Sequence record: KX452698
Direction: 5' to 3' (one strand)
Length of the DNA stretch: 64,000 bases
From: Shigella phage KNP5
In this document: piece after piece, positions 1,492 through 64,000 of the stretch
How the letters are laid out: the number at the start of each line of letters is the position of its first letter
Position numbering within the stretch: position 1 is the stretch's first letter
Position numbers and translations under genes: made by a program
The notes under the pieces: generated by a model
Database searches by the model: none
What the model saw: only the letters and a program-made list of their open reading frames with translations
Told to the model about the DNA's origin: nothing

Positions 1492-1965
1492 TTATTTGAA
1501 TGATTTGACGTACTGAATAGAGCCTTTGCTATTCACGAAAGCGATTTTACCATTTTTGTTATACATGGTAGCAGTACGCTGATAACCATAAGTTTGTTTA
1601 CCAGATTGATAACCAACTAATGCAAAATTATCTTCACCCATTTTATTCTGCTTCGCGCGGATACGTTCATGACCATGTGCCATAAGAACCTTAGCGTCGC
1701 CAGTTGCAATGGATCTACGAGTTTTTTCATCTTCAACTGTATTAACAAAGTCGTCAAATGAATCAAATTTAGCGTGAGATTTATTATACAGTTTTCCATC
1801 TACTGCATAATTATATCCCTGTACATCCATCTCAACTTCTGTACCATCATCCAATACAGCAGTGATTTTTTGACCTTTTTTAAATTTCAAAAGATCAGTA
1901 AAAGATTCAGCGATAATTTGAGAATTAATAGCTGCTTCAGTGATAAATTCTTGATATGTTTTCAT
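1492..1965 (-). CDS. head internal protein (IP-like) with N-terminal capsid targeting sequence
   Basis: 157 aa; begins MKTYQEFITE, matching the T4 IP capsid-targeting sequence with I-x-E protease sites (ITE, IAE); late promoter just upstream. Confidence 0.7.
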   Translation of the reverse strand: MKTYQEFITEAAINSQIIAESFTDLLKFKKGQKITAVLDDGTEVEMDVQGYNYAVDGKLYNKSHAKFDSFDDFVNTVEDEKTRRSIATGDAKVLMAHGHERIRAKQNKMGEDNFALVGYQSGKQTYGYQRTATMYNKNGKIAFVNSKGSIQYVKSFK

Positions 1966-1974
1966 GTGTTTCCT

Positions 1975-2391
1975 TTAAATGTAAATAGTTTTACCGTAGT
2001 ATTTATACCAGTGTGGCTTCATTAAAATTTTTTCATCGAGTCGTTGTTGACTCAACTTAATAGCTGATTTGCATGGATTATAATCATTTTTCCATTCTGC
2101 TGGAATATCGCTGATGTCAGGAACTTCAGTATCTTTTATATTAAACCCACGTTTTAAGCATTCCGTTATAATGTCTGATTGACGCTTTCGCAAAAATTCT
2201 AACTTATCATAAAAGAACGTAACATGACCAGAGCCTAAAATAAACTCGGAAGATATTTTAAAATCTTTAACCCGCTTACCATTTGCAACATGTTTACGAA
2301 CTATACCAAAAACACGCGGCAGTTCACGGTATTCTGCGATTAAATGTTGATCAGCAAGTTCAGATACTAAAGTCAAATTAATACGAGTCAT
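1975..2391 (-). CDS. denV: endonuclease V, pyrimidine dimer DNA glycosylase
   Basis: 138 aa; [17 protein letters not shown]...WYKYYGK closely matches T4 DenV. Confidence 0.92.
2000..2007 (-). promoter_or_regulatory. T4 late promoter core TATAAATA (inside the 3' end of denV) upstream of the IP-like gene
   Basis: plus strand tatttata = minus TATAAATA, about 35 nt upstream of the ATG at 1965. Confidence 0.6.
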
Positions 2392-2406
2392 TTTATCCCT
2401 CCAAGT

Positions 2407-2446
2407 AACTGTGAATATACTATCACAGTTCTAGAAGAAAGTAAAC
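2407..2446 (-). promoter_or_regulatory. early promoter (-35 GTTTAC) with the -10 region in the loop of an 8-bp hairpin, upstream of denV
   Basis: minus strand GTTTAC-18nt-TAGTAT; hairpin AACTGTGA/TCACAGTT at 2407-2430. Confidence 0.5.
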
Positions 2447-2450
2447 AACT

Positions 2451-2981
<531 letters not shown>

Positions 2982-3437
2982 TTAAAAGAGGCTGTTCATT
3001 ATTCGGTAAAGTGAAGGACCCATCACATATTGCCACTGAGTACGAGGAATAAGGGCAAAAGCATCCATCTCTGGAATCATAACACCATCTTTATTTTCAA
3101 AATAAGACTCGCAATGGCAATTTCTAAACATCTCATGCTCTACTGGAATCGTATAATAAAATAACTGTAAGTCTTTATTACTAGAATATTTAAATACACC
3201 TAGGTCTTCTAGAAGGTCTGAATTATAATCGATAAAACCAGTCTCTTCTGAGCATTCTCTTTTTGCAGCTTCCAGTGCATTCAAATCAGAACTTTCTACA
3301 CGGCCCTTTGGAATATCCCAGCGATGTGCCATCATTCCAGGTTTACGAGAACCAGTAACTCGTCCCATAAATAAATCTTTATCTTCTGTCATAAAGATAA
3401 TACCAGCTGATAATGTTTTCATTTTAATTTCCTGCAT
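2982..3437 (-). CDS. nudE: Nudix hydrolase
   Basis: 151 aa; Nudix box EAAKRECSEETG; position immediately after e as in T4 (e.1); alternative start at 3422. Confidence 0.85.
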   Translation of the reverse strand: MQEIKMKTLSAGIIFMTEDKDLFMGRVTGSRKPGMMAHRWDIPKGRVESSDLNALEAAKRECSEETGFIDYNSDLLEDLGVFKYSSNKDLQLFYYTIPVEHEMFRNCHCESYFENKDGVMIPEMDAFALIPRTQWQYVMGPSLYRIMNSLF

Positions 3438-3907
3438 TCAGTGATAAAGTTATTTAAATTTTGAGTATATTTCTTTTCATCAAAAATCTTTTGTTGTCTG
3501 CGTAGCCGCCATGGCATTTCAATGAACGTGTACCATATCCCAGATAATATTGCTGCTGTAAAAATATTAACAAGTATGGTTAAAAGAATCCAATCTCCTA
3601 TTCTGTCCATTGGATTTTTTATAAAAAAGTAAAATACGAATGATGTCACAGGAAGACTAATAATATACCACAGAATCATAATTTTATCTGTGAACCAATC
3701 AGCGTTCGTTAACTTAGCGCGACCATTATGAATACACACGAATTTATCGTCTGTTATAGTAGATGGCTTAACTGGTTGATATCCCATTCTAAACTCCCTA
3801 ATCAACAAATTTTTCATATCTTCGGAACAGCCATTCCAGTCAACTCTATCAACTGGAATGCCATCATCCCCATCATCTAAATCATACCAGCGAGTTTTTA
3901 AAATCAT
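3419..3907 (-). CDS. hypothetical membrane protein (T4 e.2-like position)
   Basis: 162 aa ORF with hydrophobic segments; ATGA overlap with next gene. Confidence 0.6.
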   Translation of the reverse strand: MILKTRWYDLDDGDDGIPVDRVDWNGCSEDMKNLLIREFRMGYQPVKPSTITDDKFVCIHNGRAKLTNADWFTDKIMILWYIISLPVTSFVFYFFIKNPMDRIGDWILLTILVNIFTAAILSGIWYTFIEMPWRLRRQQKIFDEKKYTQNLNNFITECRKLK

Positions 3908-4266
3908 TTGATTTTCCTACAATCATTCACGAATTCTTTCATTGATTCATTTTCAATATAAGACATGTAGCTATTGTATTCTTTTAATTGTATTTTGTAA
4001 TCCTTTTTTCTTTGCCAATTTATTTTAAAATTATCATAATGAAAAAATAGCATGGTACCAAAGAATGAAAATAATGAAATCGCTATAGTAAAACGAAGTT
4101 CACTCCAAACATCTGTTATAATTGCTGAACTATCGATGTTTAAAATAATACAGTCAATCATTAATCCAATAAGACTACCAGCAAGAGCTGCAGCCAACGC
4201 CACAGCAAGAATTAATAGCGCCTCGGGAAACGAATATTTGACTTTATTTAGTTTTGGCTTTTGCAT
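3904..4266 (-). CDS. hypothetical membrane protein (e.3-like position)
   Basis: 120 aa; hydrophobic core LLILAVALAAALAGSLIGL. Confidence 0.6.
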   Translation of the reverse strand: MQKPKLNKVKYSFPEALLILAVALAAALAGSLIGLMIDCIILNIDSSAIITDVWSELRFTIAISLFSFFGTMLFFHYDNFKINWQRKKDYKIQLKEYNSYMSYIENESMKEFVNDCRKIK

Positions 4267-4661
4267 CGTGATTCCTTAACAAATTTCATAATTTCATCAA
4301 ATTCATACGCAGCAAGTTTAAGCTGATGTTCTTTTTTAATCTTTTTGCACTGGGCTTTCCAATCACGTATACGTTTACGATAGTGTCTTCCTTGATACCA
4401 GTATCCTACCCAATTCACAGGTACTAATAAAAGCGGAACTACCAATGGAAAAATTAGTGTTGCTCCAAATATTACACCAGATTCAATATCAGTCATAACG
4501 TCTATAACCATTCCAGCAATCAGCAAAATCACAAATGATACAGCTACCACAGGACCTATTAACACATCAGTAGAAATTAGCTGACGCTTTGGTTCATACT
4601 TCACAGGTTTACTTGGAAGGTATAGTGATGGCTTTGACATATTCTCTACATTCCTTAACAA
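4248..4661 (-). CDS. hypothetical membrane protein (e.4-like position)
   Basis: 137 aa; two predicted TM segments. Confidence 0.55.
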   Translation of the reverse strand: MLRNVENMSKPSLYLPSKPVKYEPKRQLISTDVLIGPVVAVSFVILLIAGMVIDVMTDIESGVIFGATLIFPLVVPLLLVPVNWVGYWYQGRHYRKRIRDWKAQCKKIKKEHQLKLAAYEFDEIMKFVKESRCKSQN

Positions 4662-5223
4662 ATTTTTCTAATAATAAATCGCTTTCAAAATTGGGATTTT
4701 CTACGAATTTATCAAAAAGATCATCAACAATAGTTAAGATATTCTTTTTACTAAGAATACGTTTATTTTCATGCTTTGTTTCAGAATCAATTATAAGAGT
4801 AAAGAAATATTTCTTTCCCTGAAATTTTACCGTAGTATCAATATAAAATAAATTTGACTTTTGTAAATTACGTTTAAACCATGCGTCACTTAAACTATAA
4901 ACGCCAAGATAATCATAATCGTCGTTTAAATAACAAACCGTCCATTCAGGAGAAATGAAATCAGTAAATTCAACATCAAAATCACATGTCAATGAATGAA
5001 TTGATTCAATACTGTTAATGAGTATTCCAGGACGTATTAAAGACTTTTTACCTCTAGAAAATCTTCCGGAAAGGCTTTCATCAGTTTCATATGAAGACCC
5101 CCAATAGTAATTACGTCCTTCTGCCATACGTTTAAGAGCATTTAGTAATTGGTCTGGAACATCAACCTGTCTTTGGAACTCTTCAAACATTGAATTGAAA
5201 TCACTTTGCATTTTCATTTTCAT
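4609..5223 (-). CDS. hypothetical protein (e.5-like position)
   Basis: 204 aa ORF in operon-like array. Confidence 0.6.
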   Translation of the reverse strand: MKMKMQSDFNSMFEEFQRQVDVPDQLLNALKRMAEGRNYYWGSSYETDESLSGRFSRGKKSLIRPGILINSIESIHSLTCDFDVEFTDFISPEWTVCYLNDDYDYLGVYSLSDAWFKRNLQKSNLFYIDTTVKFQGKKYFFTLIIDSETKHENKRILSKKNILTIVDDLFDKFVENPNFESDLLLEKFVKECREYVKAITIPSK

Positions 5224-5264
5224 TCCTATTTACTCCAAGTATAAGGGGCCGAAGCCCCTTATCA

Positions 5265-5858
5265 TTATTTCAGAGAATTAATGTATTCCTGAACATCGGC
5301 AGAGGTAGTTTCAACCCCAGAAATATTACCGTTAAAGGTTTCAACTCGAGCAAGGGTATCTTCAATATCAACCTTAGTCAGTGCTGCAATTTCAACTACA
5401 TCATCGGCAGTACTAATTCCAAGGGCATTTGCTGCACGAGTTTCACGGATATATTCCAATTTAACCGCAAGTTCTTGACGAGCATCATCTAACTCAACTA
5501 CTTTCTTGGCGATTTCAATTCGCATTTCAGCATAACCGTCAGCCTTAGTAGTCAACTGCTCAGCTGTTCGACGATATAGCAAGCCGAGTTTAGCGTGCAT
5601 TGTTACATCTTGACCTTCGGAAAGAAGTTTACGAATTTCACGCTCTTTTGATTCGGCCTGTCGATTCTTTTCGACAATAAGTTCACGAATACGTTTTTCT
5701 TCATTAATAGATTTAACAGAAGCAGTTTTTAGATCTTTAATTTTATCAAGCAGTTTTGCTGCTGCAGCAGTATACTGTTCTTCAACAGATAGATTTTTAG
5801 CCATAGCAGAACCAAGTTTAGTGCGAATAAATTCAACAATTTTCTTCAGTGTGTTCAT
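5265..5858 (-). CDS. hypothetical coiled-coil protein (e.6-like position)
   Basis: 197 aa, charged and heptad-rich; strong early promoter upstream. Confidence 0.6.
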
Positions 5859-5889
5859 AGTATTTCCTTAGGTTGATTAAAAATAAAAT

Positions 5890-5929
5890 CTGTGGAAGAA
5901 TTATATCATACTATTTAAGAGATGTAAAC
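5890..5929 (-). promoter_or_regulatory. early promoter GTTTACA-17nt-TATAAT
   Basis: minus strand aGTTTACAtctcttaaatagtatgaTATAATtc, upstream of the ORF at 5858. Confidence 0.6.
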
Positions 5930-6446
5930 TATTTTTAATTTTACAAATTCGTTCAGCTTCTTCAACGGCGGCGGCGATAATGCTTTTAGCTATAGGAGTA
6001 CTAATACTAGTAGCTTTTACACTTAACACGATTTCTTTATCTTTACTAGGCCAACCCCATGATTTTTCACCATGAGTGCCTTTAATAACAGCAGACACCT
6101 CAAGTGAGCATCCACTGTCACATGTTTTTACATTAACAACCCAAGGGTCACTTTTCTCAACCGATTTCTCAGCCGGTTTATCCCAGTAAATATTAAGAAT
6201 ACGTGGGACATCAAATTTAGCAGGGCAAATCTTAACTGTAAGACCTTCGCTTTCTAGCCAATTAATAAGAGGGCGTTCATACATGCGGCGATGTGGGCTT
6301 TGGACTCGACAAGCCTTGTGCCCATTGCTTGCGGCTTCACTAAGCTGTTCTAATACCTGTTTTTGCATTATTGATAAGATATCATCAAAAGATTTTTCGG
6401 AAGTTTCATTCAGTTCGGTATAAAGAGACATAACGGTTTTCCTCAA
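5901..6446 (-). CDS. hypothetical protein (e.7-like position)
   Basis: 181 aa ORF. Confidence 0.6.
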   Translation of the reverse strand: MRKTVMSLYTELNETSEKSFDDILSIMQKQVLEQLSEAASNGHKACRVQSPHRRMYERPLINWLESEGLTVKICPAKFDVPRILNIYWDKPAEKSVEKSDPWVVNVKTCDSGCSLEVSAVIKGTHGEKSWGWPSKDKEIVLSVKATSISTPIAKSIIAAAVEEAERICKIKNSLHLLNSMI

Positions 6447-6450
6447 ATTG

Positions 6451-6487
6451 TAGGCTCATAATATCTCAATCATGAGCCTATGTAAAC
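6451..6487 (-). promoter_or_regulatory. early promoter (-35 GTTTAC) followed by a 9-bp hairpin enclosing the -10
   Basis: minus GTTTACA TAGGCTCAT gattgagatatt ATGAGCCTA; -10 TATTAT. Confidence 0.5.
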
Positions 6488-6805
6488 TTATTTCATATTA
6501 TTGAAATATTCTTCTGCGATTTCGTCGTTATCGTGGTAAACTTTAGAAGACAGTTTAACATAACCTTCTGCTGTGAACATATTAATCACAACCTTTACAG
6601 TATACCACTGTCCGTCTTCATTACCCATTACTGCGTAAGTTTCAAACATCGGATGGTCAGGACCGATAACTTTAATATCATTCACTGTACGACCGAAATC
6701 TTCTGAAACGCATTTCATAAAGAAGTTGAACAGTTCGCCGTAATTATCCATTTCATTCTCCAAGTTGTTTTTCTGTATCAGTAGTTGATAGTTGTATAGT
6801 ACCAT
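6488..6805 (-). CDS. hypothetical protein (e.8-like position)
   Basis: 105 aa ORF. Confidence 0.6.
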   Translation of the reverse strand: MVLYNYQLLIQKNNLENEMDNYGELFNFFMKCVSEDFGRTVNDIKVIGPDHPMFETYAVMGNEDGQWYTVKVVINMFTAEGYVKLSSKVYHDNDEIAEEYFNNMK

Positions 6806-6824
6806 GGAAGAGCAGGGATGTAAA
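6796..6824 (-). promoter_or_regulatory. early promoter TTTACA-17nt-TACTAT
   Basis: minus tttcacaaaactaTTTACAtccctgctcttccatggTACTAT, upstream of the ORF at 6805. Confidence 0.45.
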
Positions 6825-6955
6825 TAGTTTTGTGAAAAAATTTTTAAAAATTTTTAGGGAATTCTAGGGCAGGGAGGGGCAATTAAAAGATAGGATAATA
6901 TATTATAAAGGGTAGAAACTAAATGATGTCTAGAGAGGTCCAGAAAGGCCTAGAT

Positions 6956-6986
6956 ACCAAAAAGCCCCAACCTTTTGGTCGGGGTT
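6956..6986 (-). terminator. rho-independent terminator (minus strand)
   Basis: minus AACCCCGACC aaaa GGTTGGGGC followed by TTTTT; downstream of the IP-like gene. Confidence 0.7.
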
Positions 6987-6993
6987 AAGAATG

Positions 6994-7467
6994 TTATTTG
7001 ATTTGTTTAGCAGACCAAATGCGGTCTTTAATAATTTTTTGAATGTCTTCAACATACTCAAGAGAGTGAACATGTGGATTATCTTTGAAACTATAAGCAC
7101 GGGCTAACTTTTGGCCTTCGGTTTTGATTACTAAAAGCTCTTTAAGGATAGCTTCATATTTAGAGATAATTCCTTTAACAATATTTTTTTCTTGTGCAAC
7201 TTTAGGATCTGCTTTAGGAGCAGGTTTACCCGAAGCCTTTGCAAAAGCAGCGCCAGTAGCAACTAGACTTTTCCAGGCCATACTAACCGCATTTCCCGTA
7301 AATCCTTCTGCTTTCATGTCGCGAGCAAATTGGAATCGTGATTCGTCAGAAGCATCTTTATAGGAATATTTACCCGCTGCAATGGCTGCTTTTGCGACAG
7401 CTTGAATTTCGGTGCTAGATGCTTCATTTAACACCGCTTCATTTAAAAATTGAGCATATGATTTCAT
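6994..7467 (-). CDS. head internal protein (IP-like) with capsid targeting sequence
   Basis: 157 aa; begins MKSYAQFLNE↓AVLNE↓ with L-x-E sites; own late promoter and flanking terminators. Confidence 0.65.
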   Translation of the reverse strand: MKSYAQFLNEAVLNEASSTEIQAVAKAAIAAGKYSYKDASDESRFQFARDMKAEGFTGNAVSMAWKSLVATGAAFAKASGKPAPKADPKVAQEKNIVKGIISKYEAILKELLVIKTEGQKLARAYSFKDNPHVHSLEYVEDIQKIIKDRIWSAKQIK

Positions 7468-58814: not shown

Positions 58815-58818
58815 CAAT

Positions 58819-58848
58819 GGGGACCGAAAGGTCCCCATATTTTTATTT
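58819..58848 (+). terminator. rho-independent terminator after gene 54
   Basis: GGGGACC gaaa GGTCCCC followed by atatttttattt. Confidence 0.75.
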
Positions 58849-59133
58849 ACGGAATGAAATAAAAGCAGCAACTGAAGCAACTAAACTGTCTTCAATATAA
58901 ACTTCAATTTTTACCGGAGCTTCTGACTCAAATTTACCTGTTACTACACCTTGGAAAATGCTTTCAGTCTGCTCTGGCTTTGAAAAATTTTCAGAAGGAA
59001 AAATTCCGAACTTTTTATCTGTTCCAAAAATTTTGATAAATTCATCGTAAACTGCTTCATTAAAAGCGTTATCAGCAGGAATAACGCCTTCAACTACAAG
59101 TTCTTGACCTAAAAAGCGTAAAGAAGATTTCAT
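58843..59133 (-). CDS. hypothetical protein
   Basis: 96 aa ORF between gene 54 and the alt paralogue. Confidence 0.5.
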   Translation of the reverse strand: MKSSLRFLGQELVVEGVIPADNAFNEAVYDEFIKIFGTDKKFGIFPSENFSKPEQTESIFQGVVTGKFESEAPVKIEVYIEDSLVASVAAFISFRK

Positions 59134-59193
59134 TTTGTGTTCCTCATGTTATGTCAGTAAGACTACTATAACACAACACGAGGGACTTGTAAA

Positions 59194-61251
59194 CTACATC
59201 TTGAACTTTTTAGACATTCCGTTAATGTTAACCAAAGAAGCCAAGATTTGAGAAACTTCGTTTTCCTCTTCTTTTGATTCTTCTACAAGGAATTGATTAA
59301 ACCCAGCCATTGGACGAACTTCGCCAGTTTCCATTAGATGATCGCCATCATATACCGATTCTTCTAATTGTTCAGAAGGAGGAACGATTGTGCCTTCGAT
59401 TAGATACTTGTTATAAGCAGTTTCTTTCATCATGTACGTGCTTACTTTATTAATCTTCAACAAAATTCCACGTGGTAGAATAACTTCAGCTTCTGATGGA
59501 AATCCTGATAAATGACCTGGAACGATAACTTTGATTCGCTCAGCCCCTTTAATTACCATACCTACGCTAGTTTCAGCATCTTCATTCGCATAAGCAGAAT
59601 GACTGCCCATATGCATTAAATCTTCAGCATCAACAGAACCTTCTCCTTCACCAGAAAATACTGCGCCGGAATCATCTAGAGCCATATAGTTTTTACCATG
59701 CTCACCGAAGATATTTGGTTTAAGCGATGTGGATACGAAGTTCTTGAAATAGAACATTTTATTTTCAATATTATGGCGTAAAGTTTTAAAAGTAACTTCT
59801 TGTCCACGATAAAGCGTAGTTCCTGGAGGAAGAACTGATCCTTTGGCGAATGCAGAATCCAGAGTCTCGATGTGTTTAATAGCTCGTTCCATGTATTCTT
59901 CACGGGTAGAATCTGGTTTACCCAAGAGGAACGAGTTCATTTCAACATATGAATCTGCACAATAATCTTCAATTACATCAGACTCAGCCTGAGTCAGTCC
60001 TTTTGGAGTTACTTCGGTGCTTGCGTATTCATATGCCTGAGCAGCAGATTCATTAATCAATTTATAAATGCCATTCATGACAAATTGAATAATAGCTACC
60101 TTTTCGTCTGGCGTAGCTTTAGAACCTTTAACTAAATCATTGATAATTTTCTTAATAACATCAAAGCTATTAGAAATATTAATGTCAGCGAGATCGCTCA
60201 AAATTTTATCGGTTTTATAATCAAAGAATTCTTTATTCTTTAAATATTCTTGAGAACCTTGATATGTTATATCGCTCTGCAGTCTGATAGACGGATCACG
60301 TAAACGTGCATGGGCCAATGCAATATGATTTCGGAAGCTTTCTAGTTCATAATCGTTAGATTTAAAACGAGAAGCACTTCTCATACCACCAATAGCTCCT
60401 TTGCCGAAGTTTGAACCAATCTGAATAACGCCAGAGTTCATTGGTCCTTCTGCTTTATATACCGGAACTTTAGATTCAAACTCTTGATATTTCTTAGCAG
60501 CGAAGCTATCACCCTGAAGTGAAGCATCTACAGTAGAATATTGAGCTTGCGCTGCTAATCGACGACTAATTTTAGTTTTCTGAATAACAGCTTGATCCGT
60601 GCGCTTATCATTTTCTAAAGCAATAGAAGCAGCAACAGCAACAGCTTTAGGAACAGCATTACCTGTTTTGACATCTACATAAACATCACCAACCTTTGAT
60701 TCAACTTTTGTGAATAACTCAGTTGAAATAGGAGGTACACCTGGAATGTCTTCTAAATTGGCATTTTTACGGTAAACCATAATATATGCATACTTTTTAT
60801 CATAATCCCAGATTTCCTTTAAAAGAACATATCGACCTGCTCCTTTAGTACGTACTAAACGGTCAGCAATAACTTGCATTTGACGAGCAGCGCCATTTGT
60901 TTTACTTTTTAGTACGCGGAATAGGCATGCGTCAATTTTATACTGTTTCATTGTTTGAAGAGCAGTATCAAAAACCGCATTAATGACACCAATTGGATTT
61001 CCACCCAAGTTTTTAAGTTTAACTAATGATAGTTTTTCATTAACACCTATCATTACGATATGCATCATTTTATCACCTTGCTTAACGTTTTTATTTGTAT
61101 CACCGCCAGAGGTGTATGTACAAAATCTAAATCCAGGAAGCACGCTTTCTTCACCGGCTTGAATAGCAAAAATTTGAGGTATTTTATGCTTAGGATTTAA
61201 GTTAACAACCGGCGCCGAAGCGCCGTCAAATAATTCTGTAATAAGTTCCAT
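59194..61251 (-). CDS. Alt-like ADP-ribosyltransferase, second paralogue
   Basis: 685 aa; N-terminal about 230 aa near-identical to Alt (MELITELFD...); divergent middle; ART motifs LYRG, STS, EAEVILPRG. Confidence 0.85.
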   Translation of the reverse strand: MELITELFDGASAPVVNLNPKHKIPQIFAIQAGEESVLPGFRFCTYTSGGDTNKNVKQGDKMMHIVMIGVNEKLSLVKLKNLGGNPIGVINAVFDTALQTMKQYKIDACLFRVLKSKTNGAARQMQVIADRLVRTKGAGRYVLLKEIWDYDKKYAYIMVYRKNANLEDIPGVPPISTELFTKVESKVGDVYVDVKTGNAVPKAVAVAASIALENDKRTDQAVIQKTKISRRLAAQAQYSTVDASLQGDSFAAKKYQEFESKVPVYKAEGPMNSGVIQIGSNFGKGAIGGMRSASRFKSNDYELESFRNHIALAHARLRDPSIRLQSDITYQGSQEYLKNKEFFDYKTDKILSDLADINISNSFDVIKKIINDLVKGSKATPDEKVAIIQFVMNGIYKLINESAAQAYEYASTEVTPKGLTQAESDVIEDYCADSYVEMNSFLLGKPDSTREEYMERAIKHIETLDSAFAKGSVLPPGTTLYRGQEVTFKTLRHNIENKMFYFKNFVSTSLKPNIFGEHGKNYMALDDSGAVFSGEGEGSVDAEDLMHMGSHSAYANEDAETSVGMVIKGAERIKVIVPGHLSGFPSEAEVILPRGILLKINKVSTYMMKETAYNKYLIEGTIVPPSEQLEESVYDGDHLMETGEVRPMAGFNQFLVEESKEEENEVSQILASLVNINGMSKKFKM

Positions 61252-61254
61252 GAT

Positions 61255-63312
61255 TTATCCTTGAACGAACTTGTAAGGCATGTTTGCAATATCTATGCAA
61301 GATGCAATAATTCCAAGAGATGATTCTACTTTTTGTTTAACATTTGATGAAACAAATGATGCAAAATCAACTCTGTCTTCTATTTCAATATCACCTGTCA
61401 TTGCAACTACTTCACCGGTTTCCATTAGACGGTCACCGTCATAAATTACTGATTCGGTGAGTTCTTCTGTAGTCATAACTTCAGCTTGAATAAGCTTGTT
61501 GTTAGTTTTAGCTGTTCCATCATTGTAAGATGCGTCGGTTATTTTATTGACTTTGACCATCAATCCACGCGGCAAAATGACTTCCATTTCATTTGAAGGC
61601 GCTAAACTTCCACCTGGTAAAACAACGTTGACTTTATCAGCCCCAGTAATAACCCATCCAATTCCAACTAAATTATCGCTAGAATTAACAAGTCCTTCAT
61701 CGTTTTTATCGATAGAAATGTTTAGACGCTTTTCGTCTGGTAAAACACCCACAGCTGAATCAGTCATCCAAGTACCAAAAATGTTTGGATATAATGATGT
61801 TGATACAAAATTTCTAAAATAAAAAACTCGATTTTTTACCAATGCTTCATATATTGAAGGTAACATTCGCTGTGAACGATATAAAGTAATACCTTTTGGC
61901 AGTCGATCACCATTTTTAAAGGCTGAATCTAAATTATCGATGGCTTGTTCTATTTCTGGTGCTGTTAAAATACTTGTACGCTCATCTGGATTATATAATC
62001 CCAAAAGAGCATTATTCATGTCTACATATCCTGAACCTACGTATTCACGAATTCCGCGTTTTTGTGCCGGTGTGTATTTAGATGAATCTTTATTTTCGAC
62101 TATAGAATGCAATGACCATCCAACGGTAAGAGCATATCCACGTAATTCTCTTCGAATAATCTTTGTTTTTATTGCATTCCAAGAATTTTGCACTAACTCA
62201 TTCGCAGCATCTTGATTTAAATGCGAATGCTTGTTAATATTTCTTTCTAACCAAGCACCTTTATATTTTTCTAAAGTATCATCAACTATAGAAGCAATAG
62301 TTTCTAAAGTTTTTATTGAAGTAATAGATTCTTTTCGTAATCTTTCTAAAGCTTTATTTTTTATTTCTGCATTAACATCAGATTCTTTATCTTCAGGAAT
62401 TATAGAAGCTTCTCTGAATGCCATTCCAGCTGTAACACTATTAAGAGCATTCTCTAATGCAAATCCTGAAGTAGAAATAACAGTTAATTCGTTAGCATCA
62501 GAAATTAAAGGCGCGTCAGCGGGTTTATTTAATTCTGCTGCTGAAGCCTCAAATTTTTGAAACATTGGTGTTTCAAATCTAGAAGATTCTAATGATTGAC
62601 TTTGCGCAATTGCTCTACGGGAAATTTTAACTTTAACGATTACAGCTTGGTCAGAACGTTTATCGTTTTCTTGCGCAATAGATGCTGCAATTGCCTCATT
62701 TTTAGTTACTTGAGCTCCGGTATCTTTATTGATATAAACATCGCCGACCTTCGATTCAACTTTAGTAAAGAGCTCGGTACTAATTTCAGGAACTCCTGGA
62801 ATGTCTTCTAATGATACATTTTTGCGATGTATAAGAATATATGCATACTTTTTATCGTAATCCCAGAGTTCCTTAAGAAGGACGTATCTGCCACCTGAAC
62901 GACTACGGATAAGTCTATCAGCAATAAGTTGAATTTGACGAGCTTGACCAGCAGTTTTAGACTTAAGAATACGGAGCATACAGGCATCAATTTTATACTG
63001 ACGCATCGTCTGCATTGCAACAGTAAAAACTGAATTGATGTAATTAATTGGGCTTGGACCGAGACCTTTTAATTTAGCAATTGAGCCTTTAGCAGTTAAT
63101 GTAAAAGGAACAATATGCATCATTTTATCGCCCATCTTTAAATCGCGATTAGTATCACCTCCAGATGTATAGGTACATAAACGAAAGCCTGGCTGTTCAA
63201 TTGCGTCATCAACATGAACTGAAAAAATTTGTGGTATTTTCTTCTTTGGATTTAAGTTTGTAATCGGAAGAGTAGTATCTTCGTCAAATAATTCTGTAAT
63301 GAGTTCCATCAT
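61255..63312 (-). CDS. alt: Alt ADP-ribosyltransferase (packaged, injected)
   Basis: 685 aa; matches my recollection of T4 Alt along its length; motifs LYRS, STS, EMEVILPRG. Confidence 0.92.
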   Translation of the reverse strand: MMELITELFDEDTTLPITNLNPKKKIPQIFSVHVDDAIEQPGFRLCTYTSGGDTNRDLKMGDKMMHIVPFTLTAKGSIAKLKGLGPSPINYINSVFTVAMQTMRQYKIDACMLRILKSKTAGQARQIQLIADRLIRSRSGGRYVLLKELWDYDKKYAYILIHRKNVSLEDIPGVPEISTELFTKVESKVGDVYINKDTGAQVTKNEAIAASIAQENDKRSDQAVIVKVKISRRAIAQSQSLESSRFETPMFQKFEASAAELNKPADAPLISDANELTVISTSGFALENALNSVTAGMAFREASIIPEDKESDVNAEIKNKALERLRKESITSIKTLETIASIVDDTLEKYKGAWLERNINKHSHLNQDAANELVQNSWNAIKTKIIRRELRGYALTVGWSLHSIVENKDSSKYTPAQKRGIREYVGSGYVDMNNALLGLYNPDERTSILTAPEIEQAIDNLDSAFKNGDRLPKGITLYRSQRMLPSIYEALVKNRVFYFRNFVSTSLYPNIFGTWMTDSAVGVLPDEKRLNISIDKNDEGLVNSSDNLVGIGWVITGADKVNVVLPGGSLAPSNEMEVILPRGLMVKVNKITDASYNDGTAKTNNKLIQAEVMTTEELTESVIYDGDRLMETGEVVAMTGDIEIEDRVDFASFVSSNVKQKVESSLGIIASCIDIANMPYKFVQG

Positions 63313-63322
63313 ATCCTCTCTA

Positions 63323-63330
63323 GTGTTTAT
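63323..63330 (-). promoter_or_regulatory. late promoter core TATAAATA upstream of alt
   Basis: plus tatttata; about 12-18 nt upstream of the alt ATG; preceded by hairpin AAAGGCC ttcg GGCCTTT. Confidence 0.6.
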
Positions 63331-63361
63331 TCTATTTATAAAATTAAAGGCCCGAAGGCCT

Positions 63362-63550
63362 TTAATAATCTATTGGTAAGAGAGTACGATATATTTCAAA
63401 CTTTGGACCTTTTTCATAGGTATCAAATGTTTCTGTGAATTTATTATAAGCATATGCATCTATAAATTCAATCATAATTTGTGATACAGAAGTAGAAACA
63501 TCTCCGCCTTCTTTTTGAGCAACGACAATTGTTTCTAAGTAAGCTTTCAT
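63362..63550 (-). CDS. hypothetical protein
   Basis: 62 aa ORF between gene 30 and alt. Confidence 0.5.
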   Translation of the reverse strand: MKAYLETIVVAQKEGGDVSTSVSQIMIEFIDAYAYNKFTETFDTYEKGPKFEIYRTLLPIDY

Positions 63551-64000
63551 AGACCAGTTACCTCATGAAAATCACCAAATACATCCTCGAATGTATTAGC
63601 TTTAGTTTTATCTTCACGTAAACGAATCGCAATCGGAAGAAATAATTTAACGTAATCAGTGCGGCCATCAGATTTTAACCAACCGTTACATTCGCACTCT
63701 AGAATTTTTCCAATATAATAATTTTGGTTTTCCATGATGCGAGTACGGTCAAGTTCATGCGATTTTACACCGGCTTTATCTTTTAAGCCTGAACCAGCAT
63801 TTACTTTAATTTTTCCACACTCTGATTCAAGAATAAATCCACCCGCTTTAGTAGGGTCTTTACGGTGAGGATAAATTCCTACAATTTTTAAATCAACATC
63901 AATTACTTCTTTAAATTTATAAAGATTTTTTGAACGAGCATTTTCCCATAATCCATCGGTATTTTTGAGAATAATACCTTCAAGACCTTGGTCAATATAC
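63547..64000 (-). CDS. 30: DNA ligase gp30, C-terminal part (gene continues past window end)
   Basis: minus frame open from 64000; ...GIILKNTDGLWENARSKNLYKFKEVIDVDLKIVGIYPHRKDPTKAGGF...FGDFHEVTGL matches the T4 DNA ligase C-terminus; ORF-track 63547..63735 is its tail. Confidence 0.88.
   Translation of the reverse strand, partial: YIDQGLEGIILKNTDGLWENARSKNLYKFKEVIDVDLKIVGIYPHRKDPTKAGGFILESECGKIKVNAGSGLKDKAGVKSHELDRTRIMENQNYYIGKILECECNGWLKSDGRTDYVKLFLPIAIRLREDKTKANTFEDVFGDFHEVTGL

Follow-up and report, generated by a model that had tools for sequence, protein, structure and literature searches.

The alt locus of Shigella phage KNP5: a second, full-length Alt-type ADP-ribosyltransferase gene, common among T-even phages and largely deleted in T4

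Alt of bacteriophage T4 is a NAD+--arginine ADP-ribosyltransferase (ART) which the phage packages in its head and injects. It is a prohead-core protein of about 40 copies (PMC5694885; PMC9026906; described as a core protein also in PMC11404850) and is cut by the protease gp21 after ITE-6 and LTE-619, as mapped by mass spectrometry (PMC5694885). Within its family, NAD-dependent arginine ADP-ribosylation is known only for T4 Alt (PMC5512222, PMC11404850). Paralogues of alt in T4-like phages were already noted in 2006 by Nolan et al., among them one of full length from phage 44RR (PMC1524935). Here, the alt locus of Shigella phage KNP5 was analysed in a stretch of 64,000 nucleotides (nt) from record KX452698, called the window below, in which alt is directly followed by a second full-length gene of the same family, alt2. 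This architecture is already known, annotated in hundreds of records and mentioned in print, and T4 is the exception in its phage group, having deleted most of alt2. On balance, the sequence evidence favours a normal two-gene T-even alt operon, in which Alt2 would be a second head-packaged and injected ART with different substrates.

The compared region was a 5-kb segment of this Tequatrovirus window, with 99% identity to Shigella phage pSs-1. The pair sits on the minus strand, flanked by DNA ligase/alt.1 on one side and alt.-3/gene 54 on the other, which is the genomic position of Tevenvirinae Alt, on the strand opposite to the baseplate genes. The upstream gene, alt (61255..63309, minus strand, 684 amino acids (aa)), is the T4-type allele and the orthologue of T4 Alt, to which it displayed 93-100% identity by region; it matched PF03496 with E = 4.7e-34 and also phrog_802. 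Its open reading frame (ORF) begins with ATG-ATG and comprises 685 aa (61255..63312), or 684 aa if the ATG at 63309 is taken as start. This second ATG is better spaced from the Shine-Dalgarno sequence GAGAGG (63315..63320, minus strand; 2 nt before the ATG at 63312 and 5 nt before that at 63309), yields the N-terminus MELITELFD and agrees with the annotated start of T4 and pSs-1. The stop codon TAA of alt occupies 61255-61257 and is separated by 3 nt from the ATG of alt2 (59194..61251, minus strand, 685 aa), a full-length paralogue equivalent to alt.-2 of RB32 and RB68 and to Alt2 of the BASEL phages. An earlier note on this DNA had reported two back-to-back genes of 685 aa, both starting with MELITELFD, and this held with the one refinement of the upstream start. 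Alt2 is laid out as a propeptide (aa 1-6), an alpha/beta N-terminal module (N-module, to ~aa 200), a helical middle (~aa 200-470), an ART domain (~aa 470-625) and a C-terminal propeptide (aa 632-685). Alt displayed the same order, with an N-module of aa 7-239, a divergent helical middle, an ART domain and a C-terminal propeptide.

The segment missing from T4 was found at full length and with ≥90% identity in ~400 of 460 matching phage records, and the intact pair was present in ~80% of related phage records (~400 of ~500). A tblastn search with Alt2 likewise returned ≥90% identity in ~400 records; among the matches listed, 20 of 20 had two Alt-like places. Direct comparison gave 97-100% protein identity for Alt2 of T2, RB32 and RB68, encoded by 2,058-nt orthologues at the same position, and 2,058-nt orthologues occupied this position in Bas43 and Bas37 as well. 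The same tandem pair occurred in Dhakavirus IME281 (694 and 707 aa). The second gene is labelled alt.-2 in the RB32 and RB68 records, and the pair is labelled Alt/Alt2 in the BASEL collection; a literature search on Alt2 returned only the 2006 paper of Nolan et al. and annotation tables, with no functional description found. The earlier note had taken the pair to be unusual, while allowing that its presence in close relatives would make it conserved architecture. Since T2, RB32, RB68 and most related records share it, the pair is conserved architecture on the note's own terms, and because it is annotated in hundreds of records it is no discovery as a genome feature. Citrobacter phage CF1 (Moonvirus) carried alt and a second copy (4001-6123) annotated as two overlapping ORFs of 392 and 315 aa; the split is due to a frameshift or an error of sequencing, or else the downstream copy has decayed independently for a second time.

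In T4 the second gene is reduced to alt.-1/alt.-2, and the statement in the earlier note that T4 has only one full-length alt proved correct. The alt.-1 peptide corresponded to the first 54 residues of Alt2 bar one substitution. The DNA of alt.-1/alt.-2 displayed 96-97% identity to the first 348 nt of alt2, followed by the last 20 nt of alt2 and the alt.-3 region. The junction sits on the 9-nt direct repeat CTAAAAAGT, which is present at both corresponding sites in the window: copy 1 at 60904..60912 (left end of the T4 deletion) and copy 2 at 59205..59213 (right end), both on the minus strand and with 1,699 base pairs (bp) between the repeat copies. In addition, an A-run of T4 is shorter by one A, and this 1-nt frameshift leads to an early stop. 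As judged from this alignment, alt.-1/alt.-2 of T4 is the remnant of a full-length alt2 after the loss of 1,699 bp between the 9-nt repeats and a frameshift. In the GenBank record of T4, alt.-1/alt.-2 (T4 locus 5034-5454) is described as 'an old duplication of the first part of gene alt'; this is not upheld, because the alignment displays an internal deletion in a full-length paralogue. The RB32 note of an 'apparent insertion in alt.-2' is the same T4 difference viewed from the opposite side. The deletion allele was also found in VEc20, ACG-C40, slur03/14, G8 and the Pu-Krd-SF series and, being present in many independent isolates, it is a natural allele rather than a laboratory accident. T4 and a minority of its natural relatives have lost alt2 by this deletion.

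The T4 fragments, together with the split second copy of Moonvirus CF1, could be taken as signs that the downstream gene is in general a decaying duplicate, a pseudogene in the making. This is most improbable, given that the 685-aa ORF is intact in ~400 records and that alt2 tolerates fewer transposon insertions than alt (see below). Among five Tequatrovirus genomes, the ratio of nonsynonymous to synonymous divergence (dN/dS) was 0.03-0.05 for alt2, at a synonymous divergence (dS) of 0.05-0.26, and 0.06-0.08 for alt. The gene alt2 is under strong purifying selection across its whole length.

By every sequence-level criterion tested, alt and alt2 belong to the Tevenvirinae Alt family. Both exceeded the curated cut-off of PF03496 (23.4 bits), with 72.8 bits for alt2 and 117.9 bits for alt. 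Both were matched end to end by phrog_802 (E = 3.6e-255 and 4.3e-263), and in the precomputed annotations of all close homologues the N-terminal family appears as PF26846 (Tevenvirinae_ADPRT). The motifs L-Y-R, F-V-S-T-S and E-x-E were in register in Alt and Alt2 and invariant in a 16-sequence family alignment. In alt they are encoded on the minus strand at 61876..61878 (Arg478 of L-Y-R), 61795..61803 (S-T-S, 503-505) and 61582..61590 (E-M-E, 574-576); in alt2, also on the minus strand, at 59806..59808 (Arg482), 59725..59733 (S-T-S, 507-509) and 59485..59493 (E-A-E, 587-589, both Glu being invariant in the family alignment). The earlier claim that both genes keep the ART signature was thereby borne out. 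An alanine substitution published as E577A abolished the activity of T4 Alt (PMC11404850); its target corresponds to the second Glu of the E-M-E of alt, and the offset of one residue would fit a numbering from the first ATG. The predicted structure of the C-terminal domain displayed the ART fold. A sequence search for solved structures gave none at E up to 0.01, an NCBIfam search gave no match, and a Pfam-A search with the N-module and both middles, using a set without PF26846, gave nothing meaningful at E up to 10.

Alt and Alt2 are clearly paralogous (BLASTP E = 1e-162, 41% identity overall), with identity distributed unequally: 67% over the N-terminal 238 aa, ~38% in the ART domain and ~46% in the C-terminal tail. 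The N-terminal ~230 aa, previously called near-identical, are thus conserved to a lesser degree than claimed. The strong divergence noted for the middle was confirmed; over ~200 residues (~aa 239-415/440) identity was 9-29% depending on the alignment, and the proteins were unalignable in places. The loop before E-x-E reads S-G-F-P-S-E-A-E in Alt2 vs S-L-A-P-S-N-E-M-E in Alt, and several indels separate the two proteins between S-T-S and E-x-E. The near-identity of the 5' ends at the nucleotide level, also reported previously, stands as an observation (27 of the first 28 coding nt) and falls as a sign of special conservation, which was rejected: 59% of the codons for identical N-module residues are identical codons, and 7 of 8 identical codons have P ~0.1 by a rough binomial estimate. 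The identity of the first 28 nt is unremarkable because the conserved peptide predicts about that much. Recent gene conversion between the N-modules was likewise rejected, the longest exact run common to both genes being 21 nt and synonymous divergence between the N-modules being saturated (dS ~1.3).

The upstream slot was found to be polymorphic, with an allele of 682-684 aa in the window, pSs-1 and T4 and one of 697 aa in T2, RB32 and RB68. Compared with the allele of the window, the 697-aa allele was 99% identical over the N-module and 96-98% over the tail, against 34-40% for the middle and 67-73% for the ART domain. Its N-module and C-terminal tail are of Tequatrovirus type. Compared with alt of Dhakavirus (T2 5042-7135 vs IME281 1913-3997), its middle displayed 65% and its ART domain 95% identity at the protein level (80% nt identity over 1,259 nt), while the N-modules were only 47% identical, which indicates cassette exchange between genera. 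More generally, N-modules displayed 59-67% identity within a genome vs 42-55% between genera, while middle and ART domain grouped by gene slot; a phage-specific carrier joined to a type-specific cargo would give such a pattern.

Hybrid genes were encountered as well. Isolate vB_EcoM_KAW1E185 (3481-5538) carried a single hybrid, the only alt gene at its locus, which passes from T2-type alt to alt2 at E-x-E-V-I-L-P-R-G. Three contigs from metagenomes and read archives (L003 5001-7055; L004 and L005 5001-7061) displayed an alt N-module fused to alt2, the crossovers falling near nt 320, 550 and 650. The locus of L003 has no alt gene besides the hybrid; contigs L004 and L005 stop directly behind their hybrid gene and do not reach the far flank. 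The hybrid contigs would be devoid of the classical Alt catalytic domain, and KAW1E185 of that of Alt2. A simple k-mer misassembly is argued against by the longest exact run between the paralogues, 21 nt, the contigs themselves being still unverified. As read from these sequences, the alt pair sometimes collapses by recombination into a hybrid gene.

Alt2 could, alternatively, be a redundant back-up acting on the targets of Alt (RNA polymerase alpha and others) and be kept for dosage or robustness. Family, catalytic motifs and promoter are common to both genes, and losses of either one occur naturally, alt2 being gone from T4 and the Alt-type ART from the three hybrid contigs (of which L003 alone includes the far flank). 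We regard this as improbable in view of the low identity of the middle, the different loop before E-x-E and the indels between S-T-S and E-x-E. The duplication is, moreover, older than at least three genera, each copy keeping its own type across them, and the insertion tolerance of Alt and Alt2 differs four- to five-fold.

The N-module was rare by sequence (69 clusters among 1.84 billion representatives) and was almost always N-terminal in proteins of Alt length. Its fusion to non-ART cargo was not supported: each of the six sampled hits that matched a Pfam model, four weaker and two stronger, carried PF03496, and three weak hits (P0183, P0185, P0186) were without a Pfam match. A Foldseek search against predicted viral structures returned remote matches in large uncharacterised myovirus proteins, some of them named zeta-toxin or deaminase, and is to be taken as a lead only.

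The favoured reading, a second packaged ART, can be put as follows. Late transcription from a single TATAAATA promoter would give a bicistronic message of alt and alt2, with a ribosome-binding site for each gene. Both products would follow one plan, namely a 6-residue propeptide (MELITE), an alpha/beta N-module of ~230 aa, a helical middle, an ART domain and a C-terminal propeptide. The ART would be of the C3/VIP2/Vis-like arginine type (R, S-T-S, E-x-E) and enzymatically active in both, and the C-terminal propeptide would extend over ~55-65 aa from the L-x-E site. By analogy with T4 Alt, both proteins probably enter the prohead core, are trimmed at both ends by gp21 and are injected with the DNA. 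N-module and tails would act as a phage-specific carrier, and middle and ART domain as its cargo; since the cargo differs between the genes, Alt and Alt2 probably ADP-ribosylate different host proteins. In a preprint (10.1101/2025.11.20.689424), T4 Alt restored plating on a strain with Mokosh type I and Bas37 Alt did not; distinct roles of Alt and Alt2 are plausible because Alt variants differ in anti-defence capacity. Target diversification, as proposed in the earlier note, thus stays plausible and is strengthened by the sequence evidence.

Motifs (L/I)-x-E were present in both genes at the sites where gp21 cuts T4 Alt. At the N-terminus, the motif I-T-E (aa 4-6) is encoded on the minus strand at 63292..63300 in alt and at 61234..61242 in alt2. 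At the C-terminus, alt displayed L-T-E (617-619; 61453..61461, minus strand) and alt2 displayed L-E-E (629-631; 59359..59367, minus strand), aligned with LTE-619 of T4 Alt. In the structural model of Alt2, low-confidence or disordered parts were limited to aa 1-11 and 630-685, which correspond to the two predicted propeptides. Motifs and model fit the packaging and processing of Alt2, without proving either. Beyond the predicted C-terminal cleavage site (59194-59358 in alt2; 61255-61452 in alt), an invariant Y-D-G-D-x-x-x-E-x-G-E and a terminal K-F were kept in both paralogues and in all relatives. The removed tail could serve targeting, tethering or auto-inhibition.

Several points weigh against Alt2 as a second packaged effector. 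The gene was absent from T4 and at least ~55 other records and, as these phages do well without it, in laboratory hosts at least alt2 can be dispensed with. A literature search returned no virion proteomics covering Alt2 and no paper on its cleavage, activity or substrates. We infer the role of the N-module as packaging determinant, and a 10-residue signal is sufficient for packaging of T4 internal proteins (PMC9026906). The similarity of N-modules within a genome could also stem from old gene conversion, which a dS of ~1.3 cannot separate from a carrier role. Finally, insertion data from the supplement of the HIDEN-SEQ preprint, in themselves evidence for a functional alt2, list Bas37 Alt2 (2,058 nt) as 'Intermediate', with 116 of 164 TA sites hit, and Bas37 Alt as 'Non-essential', with 164 of 179 TA sites hit; mean insertion counts were 44.5 for Alt2 vs 203.6 for Alt. 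A polar effect of the Alt2 insertions is unlikely, since a separate promoter-like site precedes the gene that follows, which is classed 'Non-essential'. Obtained in K-12 without restriction systems, the 'Intermediate' call fits a role in fitness or head assembly as well as an effector.

It is on these insertion data that the idea of Alt2 as mainly a component of prohead-core assembly draws, with ART activity secondary or unused and with N-module and tails kept for head building. T4 Alt is indeed described as a prohead core protein (PMC9026906; PMC11404850), and the N-module and the C-terminal tail motifs were the best-conserved parts of the family. We consider this idea unlikely, since the catalytic residues were all invariant in the family alignment and purifying selection extended across the whole gene. 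T4 and other natural isolates, moreover, build heads without Alt2, and T4 Alt was reported as non-essential for head assembly (PMC9026906; PMC5694885).

The reading of Alt2 as a packaged effector may be carried further, in a tentative form in which we have less confidence than in the favoured reading. Alt2 would then be an injected effector with targets of its own and with more weight for fitness than Alt, overlooked because the reference phage T4 deleted alt2. The N-module would be a capsid-specific delivery handle, to which recombination between genera joins differing cargo cassettes of middle and ART domain. In other myoviruses, toxin-type domains of another kind (zeta toxin, deaminase) may be attached to a fold with remote similarity to it.

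A candidate late promoter of T4 type, identified by consensus match only, was found as an exact TATAAATA at 63333..63340 on the minus strand and is the sole one for the pair. Over 59100-63420 of the minus strand it occurred only once (63340..63333), just beyond the end of the region delimited by the earlier note, and no match within one mismatch was found in the 500 nt upstream of the alt2 ATG. This agrees with the note's claim that only the upstream copy has an obvious late promoter, and a separate alt2 promoter, in the form of a TATAAATA match with at most one mismatch near the alt2 start, was rejected. A consensus scan of the coding strand between alt and alt2 gave no terminator-like site and no other candidate promoter; matches to sigma-70-like promoters were no commoner in the region than in shuffled sequence. 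The ribosome-binding site of alt2, AAGGA (61258..61262, minus strand), lies within the last alt codons. Co-transcription of alt and alt2 from one late promoter would be the simplest reading of this arrangement. Between alt.1 and the alt pair, a terminator-like site was read directly at 63346..63363 (minus strand), consisting of the G+C-rich hairpin aaaggccTTCGggccttt with a T-rich run behind it; it is unlisted by the consensus terminator scan and precedes the late promoter. A terminator upstream of alt is kept in five of six T4-like genomes (PMC1524935).

Downstream of the pair and outside it, alt.-3 (58843..59133, minus strand, 96 aa, DUF5498) is preceded by a sigma-70/T4-early-like promoter, TTTACA-17-TATAGT with TG (59165..59193, minus strand), identified by consensus match only. 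As far as the sequence goes, the alt-alt2 unit has its 3' boundary at this promoter-like site. A strong bidirectional hairpin (58817-58838) is common to alt.-3 and gene 54. The Bas37 orthologue of alt.-3, bas37_0031, was non-essential in the reference host, and a single competitive assay gave it a log2 fold change of -2.70 (adjusted p = 0.02; HIDEN-SEQ supplement); a conditional role of alt.-3 in host range or anti-defence is conceivable. On the other side of the locus, a 62-aa ORF (63547..63735) was rejected as a truncated ligase; it is the C-terminus of the gene 30 DNA ligase, which runs off the window. Up to the end of the window the gene 30 reading frame (63547-63999) stays open, with a match to pSs-1.

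ADP-ribosylation of host proteins by phages is known almost wholly from T4, which is without alt2, while most natural T-even phages, including therapy candidates, appear to have two Alt-type enzymes. If this is true, the expression 'the three T4 ARTs' undercounts the repertoire of the group. The main value of the locus lies in the reference phage being the exception and in Alt2 being a well-conserved candidate effector. Strongly conserved and less tolerant of disruption than Alt, Alt2 is a reasonable and cheap target for studies of substrates and anti-defence.

Compared with known systems, Alt2 is closest to T4 Alt, with which it shares the MELITE propeptide, the N-module, a helical middle, the R-S-E ART and an L-x-E site followed by Y-D-G-D..M-E-T-G-E. 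It differs from T4 Alt in its overall identity of 41%, in the middle, the loop before E-x-E and the C-terminal tail. ModA and ModB of T4 belong to the same R-S-E ART clade and the same phage group but are short early proteins without N-module or propeptides and are not packaged (PMC5512222). The C-terminal domain resembles the bacterial mono-ADP-ribosyltransferase toxins of C3/VIP2/iota/Vis type (PF03496) in predicted fold and catalytic motifs. T4 IPI-IPIII with their capsid-targeting sequences, and polymorphic toxin loci, are alike in combining a conserved delivery part with a variable effector (PMC9026906); the T4 internal-protein locus is polymorphic among related phages, and at least one of its products counters host defence (PMC9026906; PMC12373910). 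Unlike in IPI-IPIII, the carrier of Alt is a folded domain of ~230 aa with two propeptides instead of a 10-residue signal. Unlike in IPI-IPIII and in polymorphic toxin loci, the cargo of Alt was always an ART by sequence search, apart from the three weak hits without a Pfam match.

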